This document shows, piece after piece, positions 9,813 to 15,505 of a stretch of 64,000 nucleotides of DNA (position 1 is its first letter; each line of letters begins with the position of its first letter). The DNA comes from Candidatus Helarchaeota archaeon (lineage in GTDB: Archaea; Asgardarchaeota; Lokiarchaeia; Helarchaeales; RDOG01). Under the pieces are notes generated by a model. That model was not told the DNA's origin. It saw only the letters and a list, made by a program, of their open reading frames with translations, and made no database searches. The position numbers were made by a program, and so were the translations under genes. The DNA lies in assembly GCA_019058315.1 (NCBI GenBank), contig JAHPZH010000003.1, positions 428,451-492,450 on the forward strand, given 5' to 3'.

Positions 9813-10202
9813 TTGAAAAAAATACTAATGGGGCTAATTATGAGTAAAATTGATGAAGTAAAGAAAATCTTAATGGAGCTAGAAGAAAAAGTAACTGATG
9901 TAAAAGGTTCGGCAGTTATTAGAACGAATGGCTTAATTATCGCTTCTGCTTTACCTAGCGAAGCAAATGAAAGAATGATTGCAGCTATGTCTGCTGCGCT
10001 TCTCGGAACATCGAAGAGAGCTGCTGAAGCATTATTTCAAGGAACATTTGCTAGTCTAAATCTAGAGTTGGACAAAGGAAATATGTTTTTGATGGGGGCT
10101 GGAAGAGTAATTCTAGTAGCATTAACTAAAAAAGAACCTAATATTGGGTTAATTACTTTAGAAATGGAAGATACAAGTAAAAAATTAGCAGAATTGTTTT
10201 AA
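9813..10202 (+). CDS. Roadblock/LC7 (MglB-like) protein, copy 1 (probable start ATG at 9840)
   Basis: SAVIRTNGLIIASALP...IAAMSAALLG...NIGLI signature. Confidence 0.9.
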   Translation: MKKILMGLIMSKIDEVKKILMELEEKVTDVKGSAVIRTNGLIIASALPSEANERMIAAMSAALLGTSKRAAEALFQGTFASLNLELDKGNMFLMGAGRVILVALTKKEPNIGLITLEMEDTSKKLAELF

Positions 10203-10218
10203 TTAAGGATGATTTAAA

Positions 10219-10671
10219 ATGGAAAGTCAATTAAAATTTGTGGCTTCTCTCTTTAAAATGGCAATTAAGGAGTTCTTGAACGTAATGGGACCTGAGTCAA
10301 TCCAAACAATTTTTAGATTGATGGGAGAAACTCAGGGGGAGAGGGTAGAGCGAGTCATGAGGAAGAAATATAAGACAGACAGTTGGACAAAAGACGATTT
10401 TATTCCAAAACTCATAAAGGATCTCATCGAGCCAACTTTAGGAGAAGGAAATGTGGAATATAAGATAGATGGCAATGATATAACCATTAGTTTAGCTGTA
10501 TGCCCTTTTCAGAGAGCTGGGATGAGTATTACAAGTAAGCTTTATTGCACTTATACCGAAGGAATGATTGAAACCGCAATACAAAAAGCCTTAAAAAACA
10601 TCGAATTTACAACTAAAGAGTTAAAAGCATCAGGAAATAAAAATTGTGTTTTTCAAATTAAAGTGAAGTAA
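10219..10671 (+). CDS. V4R/MetOD1 (Bet3-like fold) protein, copy 1
   Basis: GETQG, CPF...C.YTEG...C.F metal-binding pattern. Confidence 0.7.
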   Translation: MESQLKFVASLFKMAIKEFLNVMGPESIQTIFRLMGETQGERVERVMRKKYKTDSWTKDDFIPKLIKDLIEPTLGEGNVEYKIDGNDITISLAVCPFQRAGMSITSKLYCTYTEGMIETAIQKALKNIEFTTKELKASGNKNCVFQIKVK

Positions 10672-10727
10672 TTTTAAATATCCTACCTTTTTTATTTTTA
10701 TAGTGATATATCAAAGAGCATCAGAAA

Positions 10728-11474
10728 ATGATACGTTACTTTTTAATTCTAAAACGCTCTGGTGAAAATATCTATAAAAATTGTTTTGGTAATGTTGATA
10801 TTGATGAAAATGTAGTAAGTGGTTTTTTCTCGGCTTTTTTTACATTTACTCAAACTCTTTTTAGTGCAGATGTTCAAGATATAGAATTGGGTCCATATTC
10901 CATGTTATTTGAAATTGTAGAAAAAGAGATAATATTAGTCGCTATTTATGACAAAGCAGATTCTTTAATAAACGTTCAACAAAAATTAACTGATTTAAAA
11001 AACGTAATTAGCTTAGAATATGGAAGAAAAATAAAACAGAACGTTTGTGATACTGATGATTTTAAAGGAATAAATAGAATAGTTGAAAAGATAATTCTAG
11101 AGGAAAAGAAAGTTCAATTGGATGAAAAATCAAAGGCTCAATATACGCAATTATTAGGAGATTTTCGTTCAAATAATGAAATTGAAGATTGCTCTTTAAT
11201 CTCAATTACAGGAATCCCCTTGATATATGAAACGAAGAGAGAATTTTTAGATCTAATAATAAAACAGATGGATGCATTTTGGAAATTTAAGAGTGAGGTT
11301 TTAGACCAAATCATACTTTCATATGAAAATAGATATATAATTTTGGTTAAAATTAATGAAAATTTAGTTTTATCTGCTTTAATAAGAAGAAATACACCTA
11401 TAGGTCTTGCAACAATGCTAATTGAGGAGTATGCAACTAAAATAGCAAATATAGCAGATAGTAGGATATTTTAA
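10728..11474 (+). CDS. Longin-like N-terminal domain fused to a roadblock-like C-terminal domain
   Basis: MIRYFLILKRSGENIY...VSGFFSAFFTF (longin-like); SLISITGIPL...TPIGL (roadblock-like). Confidence 0.65.
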   Translation: MIRYFLILKRSGENIYKNCFGNVDIDENVVSGFFSAFFTFTQTLFSADVQDIELGPYSMLFEIVEKEIILVAIYDKADSLINVQQKLTDLKNVISLEYGRKIKQNVCDTDDFKGINRIVEKIILEEKKVQLDEKSKAQYTQLLGDFRSNNEIEDCSLISITGIPLIYETKREFLDLIIKQMDAFWKFKSEVLDQIILSYENRYIILVKINENLVLSALIRRNTPIGLATMLIEEYATKIANIADSRIF

Positions 11475-11498
11475 TGATAATTTCATTAGCTGGTTAAA

Positions 11499-11915
11499 AT
11501 GGGATTATTGTCTAGATTAAGGGAAATATTTTCTAGAAAATCACTTGATTCATTCAAAGAAATAGAATCTGAATTTGTTAAATTGAAGAAAAAAAGCAAT
11601 TCTGAGATTATTGCTTTAATTGGTATTGGTGGAAAACCAAAGGGTTTGCCATTAGTGTATGTATCAGAAGATGAGAAAGTTTTAAAGCGTTATGTTGCTA
11701 GGATAGCTGAATTAGTAAATCCACTTAATAATATAACGAATGATAAAAAAGTTAAGGATGTTGTTATTTTTTATGAGGATAGGGCTTTATATTTCAACCC
11801 ATTTATGGAAGATATTAGTTTTTTTGCAATATATAAAAATAGAAACGATTTATCAATTCTCCGTCAATGGATTGACGATAAATCACAAGAATTGAAAGAT
11901 ATTTTTCATACCTAA
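11499..11915 (+). CDS. Divergent roadblock/profilin-like small protein
   Basis: ALIG...GLPLV pattern, size and operon context. Confidence 0.4.
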   Translation: MGLLSRLREIFSRKSLDSFKEIESEFVKLKKKSNSEIIALIGIGGKPKGLPLVYVSEDEKVLKRYVARIAELVNPLNNITNDKKVKDVVIFYEDRALYFNPFMEDISFFAIYKNRNDLSILRQWIDDKSQELKDIFHT

Positions 11916-12039
11916 ATGGTAACATATTAAAAAGATAAATTTGTACTTTTAACTAATTCAATCAAATTATATTGATTTTTGAATATTATAAGATGCAAGA
12001 AAAAGTAATATGGGATAAATAAAAAAGGTGGTTATATAA

Positions 12040-12402
12040 GTGAGTAAAGTAGACGAAGCGCAGAAGATATTGATGGATCTTGAGGAGAGAGTTCCTGATA
12101 TAAAAGGATCTGCAATTATTAGGACTAATGGTTTAATTATAACATCTGCATTACCAAGTGAAGCAAATGAGAGAATGATCGCAGCTATGTCAGCTGCGCT
12201 TCTTGGCACCTCGAAGAGAGCTGCTGAAGCATTATTTCAAGGAACATTTACTAGTCTCAATTTAGAGCTTGATAAAGGTAATATGTTTCTAATGGGAGCA
12301 GGTAAAGTTATCTTAGTAGCATTAACAAAAAAAGATCCTAATATTGGATTAGTTACATTAGAAATGGAAGATACTAGTAAAAGATTAACTGATGTTTTCT
12401 AA
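12040..12402 (+). CDS. Roadblock/LC7 protein, copy 2
   Basis: Near-identical to 9840-10202. Confidence 0.9.
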   Translation: MSKVDEAQKILMDLEERVPDIKGSAIIRTNGLIITSALPSEANERMIAAMSAALLGTSKRAAEALFQGTFTSLNLELDKGNMFLMGAGKVILVALTKKDPNIGLVTLEMEDTSKRLTDVF

Positions 12403-12420
12403 AATTCGAGTGATCAGAAA

Positions 12421-12879
12421 TTGGAAAGCCAATTAAAGTTCGTAGCCGCACTCTTCAAAATGGCTATGAAAGAATTTGACAGAGTTATGGGACCAGAGTC
12501 AATTCAAACTATTTTTCGATTAATTGGGGAAAATCAAGGAGAATCTATCGAGTCAAGAATGAAAAAGAAGTATAATGTTGATAAATGGACACCCGAAAAC
12601 TTCGCCGAAAATTTAGTAAAGGATGTTCTTGAGCCAGTTCTGGGAAAGGGAAAAGTCAAATATGAAATTAAAGGAGATGAGTTAATATTTGATATTGGAG
12701 TTTGTCCCTTTAGAAGAGCAGGTATAAATATATCTAGCCAAGTTTTTTGTAATTATACGGAGGGGTTGATTGAGACCTCAGCCAAAAAAGCTTTAACAGA
12801 AAATATTGAATTTAACCCTCAACATTCAATTGCTAAGGGAGATTCAAGCTGTTTATTTAAACTTAAAATCAAAAAGTAA
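12421..12879 (+). CDS. V4R/MetOD1 protein, copy 2
   Basis: Paralog of 10219-10671 (MESQLKFVA.LFKMA, VCPF.RAG, C.YTEG). Confidence 0.7.
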   Translation: MESQLKFVAALFKMAMKEFDRVMGPESIQTIFRLIGENQGESIESRMKKKYNVDKWTPENFAENLVKDVLEPVLGKGKVKYEIKGDELIFDIGVCPFRRAGINISSQVFCNYTEGLIETSAKKALTENIEFNPQHSIAKGDSSCLFKLKIKK

Positions 12880-13050: not shown

Positions 13051-14955
13051 TTGAGTTATAACGCGGAATTTGACTTTAAGATTAAAGATATTTATTCTGG
13101 TTCTTCTGAAACTTTTCCAACCCTAGAGGAGATATTTTCATCAAAATATAGGATTAAAATTCTAAATGTTCTAGCAGATGAAGATGATTTAAGTATAACT
13201 GAAATTTCAAACCGCTGTGACATACCGTACCTTACTTGTGCGACGCATTTGAAATATTTAAGTTCTCAGAATATCCTTAAAGAGAGACTTGAAGAGAAAA
13301 TTGAAATTTATCAATTTCGTAAAGAAAATGAAAATATTAGAGCGTTAAAGCATTTTATCAAACTTTGGAATTTCTATACAGAAGAGGCACATTATGAAGG
13401 ACATAAAAGAAAGACAGAAGCTTGGAAAACCCGGCATATTTATATTAATGGTAGGCCCGCACATTCAATTGAAGAAGCTAAAAATAATCTTCGAAAATAC
13501 TTAGAAAAGCATAAAGAATTACCCCCACATCCAGAAATTCCAGAAAATGCAAAGAAAGCCCTTGCCAAAGTTGAAAAAGATAAAGAACGATATCGAGTTT
13601 ATTTTGATTTATTGAGTGATAAGAGCCTTCATTTTTTAGATATACACACAAAAAATAAGCACATTGAAGCAAAATGGATAGTTGTACCACGAATTATTGA
13701 GAGTCTGCAGGATAAATGGTCAGTAGAAGAAGCATTAGAAGCACTTGAGATTGAAATGAAGTCAAGTCATTATCGCATAGTAAATGAGCTTTATGTTAAT
13801 ATTCTTGATACTTTAAATCAAGAAGAGGAAGTTGAGCTATTGAGAAAATACTGGCAACTTATCATTGAAAAACATAAAGAGATTTTACAACCTTATTTCT
13901 GGAGTGATATTCCAAAAATTGTGAGGAATTCACTTCATCAATCAACTGCTATAGTGCGTGCTATGGCATTTGATACAAATAGTAAAGATCCTCAATATAA
14001 TGCCGAATCTAAAAGACTTCTTGAAAAAATGGTAGATTTATTTTCTGAAAAAAATGAAAAAGATGAATGGCATTATCTTATCGGCACTTTATTATTTGAT
14101 AGGTATTATTACTTTCCCAGTTTTAGTGGTAGGGGCTTAGCTGAAATGTTTAATATGTATTATTCTCATAAAACACTCAATGCTTCAGCAATAGTTATGT
14201 TTAATCGAATTATTGATACTTCGCACTGGGCCGATACAGTTGCGACCCGAATATTAGAAGATCGTAGTCCAATGGAGATTGGGGAGTGGTTAAGTGAAGA
14301 TTTAAGGGGATTAATGGCGGCTCATCTAGTAAAGGGATATGTACAAAAGGATGAAATATATTACTTTTTAAAAACCCTCAAAACTTCCATCTATGATTTA
14401 ATTAAAGGTAGAGCTAGTTTTGGTAAAATACTTTTAGTATTGATGAAAGTTCATAATTCACTCAAAGAAAAAGTAGAGCAGACCCTAATGAACTTTGTAA
14501 CCTCTAGTGATTTAAAATCACTAGGTGGTAAAGGATTTATTGAATCAATAATGAGATTTAATAAAGATGAGAAGGAGAAAATTTTAGATTTTCTTTCTGA
14601 AGAAGGTCGTGGTTCATATCTACTTCAACTTCTTAAGTTATCAAATCCAAATTCCGAAACCTTTTCTGATATTGAAAATAAAGATGAAAAACAAGATCTG
14701 GCTAAGTTGGCTCGCAACGAGTTAGAACAAGTAGTGAATATGGTTAATAAAATTTGGGCCAAAGATGATACAATAATGGCTGGCTTTAAAGATACTGATG
14801 AAAAAACTTTAGAATGGGCGACAATTGATTGTTTAAAAATGATTCAACAGATTCTTGAAGACGGTTGGACTTTCCCTGAAGAGACCAATTTAATAATAAA
14901 ATGTAAAAATGCTATTGAATTAATAAAAAAAGGTAATGGTTCAGCACTGTTTTAA
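13051..14955 (+). CDS. N-terminal ArsR-like wHTH fused to a large helical domain of unknown function
   Basis: LEEIFSSKYRIKILNVL...LSITEIS...HLKYL. Confidence 0.6.
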   Translation: MSYNAEFDFKIKDIYSGSSETFPTLEEIFSSKYRIKILNVLADEDDLSITEISNRCDIPYLTCATHLKYLSSQNILKERLEEKIEIYQFRKENENIRALKHFIKLWNFYTEEAHYEGHKRKTEAWKTRHIYINGRPAHSIEEAKNNLRKYLEKHKELPPHPEIPENAKKALAKVEKDKERYRVYFDLLSDKSLHFLDIHTKNKHIEAKWIVVPRIIESLQDKWSVEEALEALEIEMKSSHYRIVNELYVNILDTLNQEEEVELLRKYWQLIIEKHKEILQPYFWSDIPKIVRNSLHQSTAIVRAMAFDTNSKDPQYNAESKRLLEKMVDLFSEKNEKDEWHYLIGTLLFDRYYYFPSFSGRGLAEMFNMYYSHKTLNASAIVMFNRIIDTSHWADTVATRILEDRSPMEIGEWLSEDLRGLMAAHLVKGYVQKDEIYYFLKTLKTSIYDLIKGRASFGKILLVLMKVHNSLKEKVEQTLMNFVTSSDLKSLGGKGFIESIMRFNKDEKEKILDFLSEEGRGSYLLQLLKLSNPNSETFSDIENKDEKQDLAKLARNELEQVVNMVNKIWAKDDTIMAGFKDTDEKTLEWATIDCLKMIQQILEDGWTFPEETNLIIKCKNAIELIKKGNGSALF

Positions 14956-14989: not shown

Positions 14990-15505
14990 TTACTCTTCAA
15001 TCGTGAATTCCCAAGCACACCAATAATCTTCTGGGTGATCGTCGGGAGGGCATGCAATACAACGAGTTTTTATTCTGGGATCGATTGTTTTTGCAAAATT
15101 ACCATATTCTACCAGACCAACAGGTTTACATGGAAAATCAGTCAGTCCTTTTCGCTTTCTTGCGGATTGAACTCGACAATCATTCATGCGAAAAACACAC
15201 CTCTTCTCGCTAATTTCAATAGTTTCTTGGATATTTACATGTGCATATAAACGATATTTTAAAGCTTTAACCAGTCCAGGGATTCCACTACCCCGCTTAA
15301 TATTCATACGTTTCATTATCCTGGTAGCTTCAAGGACTGTAAATTTTTCCCATGCGTTTCTATCCAATTCAATTGCTTTATCTATGCCCAGCTCTTTTTC
15401 CACCTCTAGAAACCATAAACCATCATGTGCTAGCCAATTTTTAGCAGCATCAGTTAACAATCCAATTAATTCTTCTTTTGTGAGCTTGAATAATTCGGAA
15501 CTCAA
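14990..15505 (-). CDS. DUF6125-family protein
   Basis: NWLAHDGLWF, CRVQ.AR, FPCK, CIACPPD.HP...WCAWEF. Confidence 0.75.
   Translation of the reverse strand: MSSELFKLTKEELIGLLTDAAKNWLAHDGLWFLEVEKELGIDKAIELDRNAWEKFTVLEATRIMKRMNIKRGSGIPGLVKALKYRLYAHVNIQETIEISEKRCVFRMNDCRVQSARKRKGLTDFPCKPVGLVEYGNFAKTIDPRIKTRCIACPPDDHPEDYWCAWEFTIEE

Follow-up and report, generated by a model that had tools for sequence, protein, structure and literature searches.

A conserved roadblock-V4R-longin gene cassette of Asgard archaea as a candidate GTPase-regulator complex

The stretch of DNA analyzed here (the window; 64,000 nucleotides, C11:428451-492450 in the 5.8-Mb genome, 31% GC, of a Candidatus Helarchaeota archaeon) carries a cassette of six co-oriented genes encoding a roadblock protein (Robl1), a V4R-type protein (V4R1), a fusion of a longin and a roadblock domain (p3), a small divergent protein (p4) and second copies of the roadblock and V4R proteins (Robl2 and V4R2). 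The four protein families of the cassette are kept together through rearrangements in divergent Asgard lineages, and the modeled structure of p3 resembles the first two domains of the eukaryotic tri-longin Rab guanine nucleotide exchange factors (GEFs). We consider it moderately probable that the products form a heteromeric longin/roadblock platform, joined by the V4R protein as a sensor or structural subunit, which regulates GTPases encoded elsewhere in the genome. The cassette offers a concrete archaeal candidate for a GTPase-regulator complex, open to reconstitution in vitro.

An earlier note on this DNA, made from the sequence alone, had listed six forward-strand open reading frames (ORFs) encoding a roadblock, a V4R, a longin-roadblock, a small, a second roadblock and a second V4R protein, and all six are present (Table 1). 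It had also named conservation of the gene order as a check. A pattern scan of species-representative genomes returned 15 related loci, all in Asgard metagenome-assembled genomes (taxon names as deposited), and the order Robl-V4R-p3-p4 is found at 15/15 of them, while the flanking genes differ and form several (at least three) unrelated synteny groups. Rearranged variants with the same four genes, found via a p4 profile, occur among more distant proteins. In one closed genome (G213) and at three further loci (L022, L028 and L029) the order is permuted to Robl-V4R-p4-LR, where LR denotes the longin-roadblock gene; in another genome (G210) the LR gene is inverted and the same four families are kept; and at three loci (L024, L026 and L027) Robl and a V4R-like protein (hhalign probability 60%, E 9e-5) are followed by a longin-only protein, i.e. 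a reduced p3, and then p4. At two of the related loci (L010 and L011) about 2 kb are inserted exactly between V4R and p3. The first of these inserts encodes a transposase of the insertion sequence (IS) type, and both halves of the cassette, Robl-V4R and p3-p4, are intact around it. A hidden GTPase gene was considered for these gaps and rejected, as what they contain is the IS-type transposase at L010 and, at L011, a short thioredoxin-like ORF.

Because the same four families persist through permutation, inversion, insertion and domain loss, there is strong evidence that the cassette is one functional unit of two sub-modules, Robl-V4R and p3-p4. The division into two is indicated by the position of the insertions, by the copying of Robl and V4R as a pair, and by the intergenic gaps, which measure 16, 24 and 18 nt inside the pairs versus 56 and 124 nt between them. 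In this genome p4 and the cassette-type V4R and Robl subfamilies each occur at a single locus. With p4 as a marker, the cassette was found in 13/301 sampled genomes of the phylum, all in the class of the window: 3/3 in its own order, and 7/68 and 3/7 in two other families. The marker was not found in the other 26 Asgard families sampled among the 301 genomes.

The description of p3 in the earlier note, as a fusion of a longin and a roadblock domain, is borne out by an AlphaFold2 (AF2) model made from a 40-sequence orthologue alignment (predicted local distance difference test score, pLDDT, 85). Residues 1-128 of the model have the order of strands (b) and helices (a) bb-a-bbb-a of a longin domain, and residues 129-248 the order a-bb-a-bbb-a of a roadblock domain. 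In structural comparison (VIA Z scores) the longin domain gave 15.3 with Trs23 (root-mean-square deviation, rmsd, 2.6 over 125 residues), 15.1 with Fuzzy LD1, 14.7 with VAMP7 and 14.4 with Sec22b, the rmsd lying at 2.3-2.6 over 117-125 residues, and residues 129-248 gave Z 14-15 with MK-D1 Roadblock3, MglB and LAMTOR2. In Foldseek the top PDB chains for p3 were those of Mon1/Ccz1, Fuzzy/Inturned (CPLANE) and HPS1/4 (BLOC-3) (E 2.5e-9 to 1e-6), with Asgard roadblocks and MglB at the next ranks. Alignment across both domains was obtained only to Fuzzy, with Z 15.4 over its residues 8-280, and to a Mon1/Ccz1 chain (Z 13.2), and a eukaryotic Fuz/Mon1/HPS1 cluster of the ESM Atlas (Fuz_longin_1/2/3) matched the whole p3 model (TM 0.68, 228 residues, rmsd 4.0).

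The sequence matches of p3 point the same way but stay below threshold. The only longin models of Pfam to respond among the 40 orthologues were Intu_longin_1 (6/40) and Fuz_longin_1 (5/40), all sub-threshold; p3 itself scored 15.4 bits against Fuz_longin_1 (cut-off 26.1), and the best of the orthologues reached E 0.0016-0.0024. Robl_LC7 matched the C-terminal domain in 2/40 orthologues, below the cut-off. According to their models, therefore, the C-terminal domain of p3 and the p4 protein are predicted to be roadblock domains by fold only. The invariant residues of the p3 longin domain fall in S31-Q42 (helix alpha1). Close orthologues of p3 (>300 bits) occur in 7 genomes, and most others have only 100-bit paralogues with these two domains.

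The subunits of the tri-longin GEFs are built from a canonical longin (LD1), a roadblock-type (LD2) and a lamtor-type domain (LD3), with an alphaX-betaX motif in the LD1-LD2 linker (Klink et al. 2022, PMC8833172). Mon1-Ccz1, Fuzzy-Inturned (CPLANE) and HPS1-HPS4 (BLOC-3) have p3's order of a longin and then a roadblock domain, and they are the closest eukaryotic architecture for p3, one that had been absent from the proposal of the earlier note. There are also differences. The tri-longin GEFs are of about 400-600 amino acids (aa) and include LD3, whereas p3 ends at residue 248, after the roadblock domain, with no lamtor-type domain in the chain; the alphaX-betaX motif is not evident in the monomer model, whose linker shows short helices at 109-112 and 115-124 but is free of strands; and the partner subunits in the cassette are separate roadblock and V4R proteins. 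The eukaryotic proteins act as heterodimers with GEF activity on Rab GTPases, and p3 is likened to them by its predicted fold. The model thus suggests a protein resembling LD1-LD2 of the tri-longin Rab GEFs without LD3.

What the earlier note had called a divergent small protein is indeed present, but by its model it is itself a fourth roadblock-fold domain with an extra N-terminal amphipathic helix. In the AF2 model of p4 (18 orthologues, pLDDT 82) a helix at residues 3-10 precedes a complete roadblock fold, a-bb-a-bbb-a, for which Foldseek returned MglB as best (TM 0.71, E 2e-6) followed by the C-terminal domains of Rag proteins and by LAMTOR. At the sequence level p4 shows no detectable likeness to the Robl profile of the cassette (hhalign probability 1.8%), and the family is small, with only 62 clusters in 1.84 billion representatives. 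The loop between strands 1 and 2 carries an invariant motif, G..G.K/R.KGLPL.Y. The N-terminus (residues 1-14, 11499-11540) is MGLLSRLREIFS, an amphipathic helix with a hydrophobic moment of 0.5-0.6 in the closest orthologues, and it follows the pattern MG-hydrophobic-hydrophobic-S/T-basic in 13/18 orthologues. We liken it to the N-terminal amphipathic helices of the eukaryotic Arf/Arl GTPases; archaea are not known to carry out N-myristoylation.

Robl1 and Robl2 score 46.2 and 47.2 bits against Robl_LC7 (PF03259, cut-off 23). The profile of the cassette Robl orthologues matches three solved Asgard roadblock structures, the homodimers 9jue, 7f8m and 7yh1 (E 6e-17 to 3e-14), from whose homology we infer that Robl1/2 have the roadblock fold; it also matches CvnB (CvnB5) and MglB. 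Robl is the most conserved member of the cassette (72% mean column identity), and its 46 invariant columns lie mostly in helix alpha2, with invariant residues in R45-L65. The start of Robl1 was placed at 9840 because its orthologues begin at the corresponding Met (MSKID), although there is an in-frame TTG upstream at 9813; Robl2 has a GTG start with AGGTGG ahead of it.

V4R1 and V4R2 match MetOD1 (PF18546) at 35.6 and 34.0 bits (cut-off 23.8), and MetOD1 is matched by 19/19 of the cassette V4R orthologues (best E 8e-11) and ATC_hydrolase by 17/19, with V4R2 at 2.2e-6. V4R itself (PF02830) and TRAPP (PF04051) each respond in 1/19, below their cut-offs of 31 and 27 bits: V4R2 gives 12.5 bits against V4R (E 0.16) and V4R1 gives 14.1 bits against TRAPP (E 0.04). 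Genome-wide there were zero PF04051 matches and several PF02830 proteins. There is also a weak NCBIfam match to the C-terminal domain of MsvR, and the nearest language-model clusters of V4R1 are ATC_hydrolase/DUF6125, MetOD1, Thorarchaeota TRAPP and V4R. A sequence search of the PDB with V4R1 and the V4R profile gave chance-level aldose reductase matches and no Bet3 or Thor-TRAPPC3 chain. MetOD1 belongs by clan to the V4R-type superfamily, and we therefore place the cassette proteins, on their profile matches, in that superfamily but with the MetOD1/ATC_hydrolase type and not the Bet3/TRAPP type. Three Cys residues are invariant, C95 (CPF motif), C110 (CTYT) and C143, and V4R2 retains all of them. 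A fourth ligand for a putative Zn site is not conserved, and CC or CxC stands at the last Cys site in some members. Four Cys (or equivalent) ligands tether the sheet to the last helix at the Zn site of Thor-TRAPPC3 and PoxR, and Cys-based Zn sites have been noted in V4R/TRAPPC3 proteins (PMC10933270).

The Robl-V4R pair is duplicated only in the window, at one further locus with the same arrangement (L002) and at another where the copies lie in tandem upstream (L001). The earlier note had judged the two roadblock proteins to be nearly identical and the V4R proteins more diverged; the asymmetry is clear (86% versus 57% protein identity), but "nearly identical" overstated the likeness of the roadblocks. 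The DNA of the two pairs is 74% identical across 781 nt, and of 121 Robl codons 63 are the same, 40 differ synonymously and 18 non-synonymously. A recent copy or gene conversion was therefore rejected for this genome because of the 40 synonymous differences, and the codon comparison indicates that purifying selection has acted much more strongly on the roadblock protein. At L001, where the two copies of Robl are almost the same, conversion or a recent copy is possible. All six V4R sequences of the three duplicated loci form one clade, and the trees are compatible with one or several duplications.

The genome has an Asgard profile, with >100 matches to the Ras family, about 24 strong ones of Rag-like type and 23 to roadblock. 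The earlier note had reported no GTPase gene in the window, and we likewise found no Ras-, Rag- or Arf-type gene within the 64 kb; the nearest lies outside, 21.5 kb upstream of p3. Elsewhere in the genome, however, each fold of the cassette is linked to small GTPases. The two closest full-length paralogues of p3 follow Rab-like GTPase genes at distances of 4 and 17 nt, in an array in which GTPase and LR genes alternate (Table 1); both score 25.2 bits (2e-5) against Fuz_longin_1, just short of the cut-off of 26.1, and the array is a natural candidate for a GTPase-regulator pair. Many longin paralogues in the genome are fused to GTPase domains, and such a cluster is also present in the ESM Atlas. 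One V4R gene stands directly upstream of a Ras-family GTPase gene and beside a Fuz-like longin gene, and a KaiC-like ATPase with two V4R domains is followed by a Ras-like GTPase. V4R domains are also joined to the other folds. A V4R+Robl_LC7 fusion protein of this genome has counterparts of 63-86% identity in six other Asgard assemblies; longin-V4R fusion clusters occur in Asgard archaea (ESM Atlas); and an Asgard longin-TRAPPC3 fusion was noted by Tran et al. 2024 (PMC10933270). The family PF19036 has 10 places in this genome and zero in 14 control prokaryotes. One match to Fuz_longin_1 above the cut-off, at 40.8 bits, is the N-terminus of a 372-aa protein on another contig (C5), whose length would fit three longin-type domains and which may be a true archaeal tri-longin-like protein.

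Table 1. Genes of the cassette, linked genes elsewhere in the genome and other features (plain numbers are window positions; C and L prefixes denote contigs and loci).
Feature	Position	Strand	Length (aa)	Description
Cassette	9840-12879	+		Six co-oriented genes; order Robl1, V4R1, p3, p4, Robl2, V4R2
Robl1	9840..10202	+	120	Canonical roadblock/LC7; Pfam Robl_LC7 3.8e-12
V4R1	10219..10671	+	150	V4R superfamily, MetOD1 type; Pfam MetOD1 1.2e-8
p3	10728..11474	+	248	Fusion of longin (residues 1-128) and roadblock (residues 129-248), by model
p4	11499..11915	+	138	Divergent, roadblock fold by model; without Pfam family
Robl2	12040..12402	+		Second roadblock copy; Pfam Robl_LC7 1.8e-12
V4R2	12421..12879	+	152	Second V4R-type copy; Pfam MetOD1 3.6e-8
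GTPase-LR-GTPase-LR array	C11:383666-386331 (L018:2167-4832)	+	177, 252, 165, 251	GTPase, LR, GTPase, LR
V4R gene	C5:276 kb (L016:7673-8827)	-	203	Directly upstream of Ras-family GTPase gene, beside Fuz-like longin gene
KaiC-like ATPase + 2 V4R domains	C1:198-201 kb (L020:1569-4427)	+	589	Followed by 301-aa Ras-like GTPase and RING/TackOD1-like protein
V4R+Robl_LC7 fusion	C5:155486-156373 (L019:1987-2874)	+	295	PF02830 2.7e-10; Robl_LC7 23.3 bits, at cut-off
Fuz_longin_1 protein	C5:703236-704354 (L032:2737-3855)	-	372	N-terminus 40.8 bits (cut-off 26.1)
IS-type transposase	L010:6377-7846		489	Between V4R and p3
Antisense ORF	11967-12209	-		Over a roadblock gene
Winged-helix gene	13051-14955	+	634	N-terminal ArsR-type winged helix; long C-terminal part without family
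DUF6125 gene	14990-15505	-		DUF6125 (4e-83); weak ATC_hydrolase match

The heteromeric platform that we favor could work as follows. The longin and roadblock domains would pair edge-to-edge, a mode that to our knowledge is common to all solved members of these folds, giving a platform whose single-helix faces bear the most conserved residues of Robl and the p3 longin domain. A small Ras-superfamily GTPase encoded elsewhere may dock on these faces, i.e. on Robl alpha2 and p3 longin alpha1, the face on which the GTPase docks in the MglA-MglB and Mon1-Ccz1-Ypt7 structures. The V4R subunit could be a Zn-stabilized sensor of a ligand or of redox state, or else have a structural role like that of Bet3, and membrane attachment may come from the p4 helix. 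Acting as a GEF or a GTPase-activating protein (GAP), the complex would set the nucleotide state of the GTPase, or else it would determine where the GTPase is localized. In this genome and two relatives the duplicated Robl-V4R pair would allow heterodimeric versions. The analysis shows the folds, families, conservation, synteny and duplication and each fold's genomic ties to GTPases; the physical assembly, a GTPase as the target and the direction of regulation are what we infer. Three observations weigh against this account. There is no adjacent GTPase gene at any of the roughly 25 cassette loci examined, and because of this the GTPase target is argued only from paralogues and fusions. The V4R proteins group by sequence with prokaryotic sensor or output domains (MetOD1, the C-terminal domain of MsvR and ATC_hydrolase), and therefore a generic sensor fits as well as a TRAPP-like subunit. 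Finally, the distribution is narrow and patchy (13/301 sampled genomes, one class), and the function of the cassette is therefore dispensable.

The same V4R matches suggest an alternative that we regard as possible but rather unlikely, namely that the cassette encodes a small-molecule, metal or redox sensor unrelated to GTPases, in which the three-Cys V4R protein senses and the roadblock and longin proteins are adaptors to transcription, a kinase or the cytoskeleton. The V4R domains of MsvR and PoxR sense a ligand or redox state, and the two cassette proteins match MetOD1 and, weakly, the C-terminal sensor domain of MsvR, with the three Cys invariant. Roadblock proteins are also known outside GTPase control, e.g. 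as dynein light chains, no GTPase is linked to the cassette at any locus, and genes for an ArsR-type winged-helix protein and a DUF6125 protein come after the cassette in the window. These two genes are not, however, kept next to the cassette elsewhere, small GTPases recur in this genome as fusion partners or neighbors of every cassette fold, and the prokaryotic roadblock relatives with known partners (MglB and CvnB) work with GTPases. The earlier note had allowed that the V4R proteins might be ordinary sensors lacking an interface; by sequence they do fall in sensor-type families, but the conserved fusion protein links V4R to roadblock. A complex prediction for Robl plus V4R scored 0.04 against a mark of 0.32, a value that weighs neither for nor against binding.

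A bolder form of the platform model, which we think improbable, is a minimal split multi-subunit GEF. Here p3 would take its third domain in trans from the stand-alone roadblock protein and be joined by a Bet3-fold V4R subunit, with the p4 helix as membrane anchor and control by a V4R ligand. If true, one archaeal complex would unite principles later separated into the tri-longin GEFs (Mon1-Ccz1 type), TRAPP and Ragulator.

It is very unlikely, in our estimate, that the cassette is an orthologue-level ancestor of TRAPP and/or Ragulator, with V4R as Bet3/TRAPPC3, the p3 longin domain as Bet5/Trs23 and the roadblocks as LAMTOR. The Z score of the p3 longin domain with Trs23, those of the roadblock domains with LAMTOR2/3 (13-14), the one V4R member with a weak TRAPP match, the Thorarchaeota TRAPP cluster among the nearest language-model neighbors and the published Asgard TRAPPC3-like structures (PMC10933270) would agree with such an origin. 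On the other hand, the p3 longin scores to Trs23, Fuzzy, VAMP7, Sec22 and AP sigma differ by no more than about 1-2 Z units, the TRAPP family is sub-threshold in that single member and without a match in the genome, and the V4R profile finds no Bet3 or Thor-TRAPPC3 chain. TRAPP lacks roadblock subunits, Ragulator lacks V4R and longin subunits, and sampling of 26 other Asgard families did not turn up the module. The TRAPP- or Ragulator-like reading of the earlier note therefore holds at the level of building blocks but not of family membership, since the V4R proteins are of MetOD1 type, PF04051 is absent and there is no linked Rag or LAMTOR1. That the genes are mere neighbors, i.e. independent small regulators together by chance or shared regulation only, is scarcely probable: Asgard genomes have dozens of roadblock and longin genes and the Robl-V4R complex prediction gave no usable answer, but the four families stay joined through permutation, inversion, insertions and domain loss in divergent lineages while the flanks change, and in this genome no other locus encodes p4 or V4R and Robl proteins of the cassette type.

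Compared with other known systems, the cassette shares with the TRAPP core (Bet3/Trs31/Trs33 plus Bet5/Trs23/Trs20) the combination of V4R-related and longin folds, which TRAPP brings together in one GTPase-regulating complex, but TRAPP is without roadblock subunits and the cassette V4R proteins are of MetOD1 type (TRAPP Pfam 14 versus 27 bits). In MglA/MglB, the actinobacterial conservon (CvnA-D) and Ragulator-Rag, roadblock dimers serve as platforms, GAPs or scaffolds; the Robl profile matches CvnB5 and MglB, MglB, the C-terminal domains of Rag proteins and LAMTOR are the nearest structural matches of p4, and the conservon, like the cassette, encodes a sensor-type protein beside a roadblock protein. 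In all three systems, however, the GTPase is encoded in that operon or as a fusion, whereas the cassette has no linked GTPase, and it also lacks the LAMTOR1-like wrapper of Ragulator and the sensor kinase of the conservon.

The closest published work, Tran et al. 2024 (Commun Biol, PMC10933270), concerns the same fold classes in the same phylum, and Robl1/2 are homologous to its solved Thor-RB and MK-D1 roadblock homodimers. That study treats the proteins singly, without the four-gene cassette, p4 or a tri-longin-like p3; the cassette V4R proteins have no detectable sequence similarity to the solved Thor-TRAPPC3, and the solved MK-D1 proteins do not include the Robl encoded by the cassette of the closed genome G213. 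In MK-D1, genes for GTPases as a rule do not share an operon with roadblock, longin or TRAPPC3 genes (PMC10933270). Taken one by one, the folds are established "eukaryotic signature" proteins of Asgard archaea (PMC10933270; Liu et al. preprint). No description of the cassette, the p4 family or archaeal tri-longin-like proteins was found in a literature search that left subscription-only papers outside. 

Asgard genomes encode hundreds of small GTPases and of roadblock, longin and V4R proteins, and the cassette is a rare case of four such proteins staying linked in different lineages; they are therefore a defined set for co-expression, structure determination and use as bait for GTPases. In its order of longin and then roadblock, p3 would be a prokaryotic counterpart of the tri-longin Rab GEF architecture, and we found none described in the literature searched. 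The restriction to one class tempers claims about the ancestry of eukaryotes. The data do not support a direct descent of TRAPP or Ragulator from the cassette, and because the module is found in one Asgard class only, and patchily, the cassette looks like a lineage-specific assembly from a shared toolkit and not like an ancestor of the eukaryotic complexes.

Two genes follow the cassette in the window (Table 1). The first encodes a protein with an N-terminal ArsR-type winged helix, and the second, convergent to it, a DUF6125 protein; ATC_hydrolase is a family group common to the DUF6125 protein and the cassette V4R proteins. Both genes were considered as parts of the cassette and rejected, since neither is kept beside it at other loci. 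A scan for sigma-70 promoters and intrinsic terminators, models that are not applicable to archaea, gave numbers at or below the shuffled expectation. The sequencing runs listed for the locus are DNA runs from sediment metagenomes, with no RNA run among them. Long antisense ORFs lie over the roadblock genes, in the window and equivalently at L001, L002 and L005. At some loci they exceed the length of the real gene and could mislead gene callers; these ORFs are an artefact of composition that arises from the Ala/Ser-rich conserved helix.

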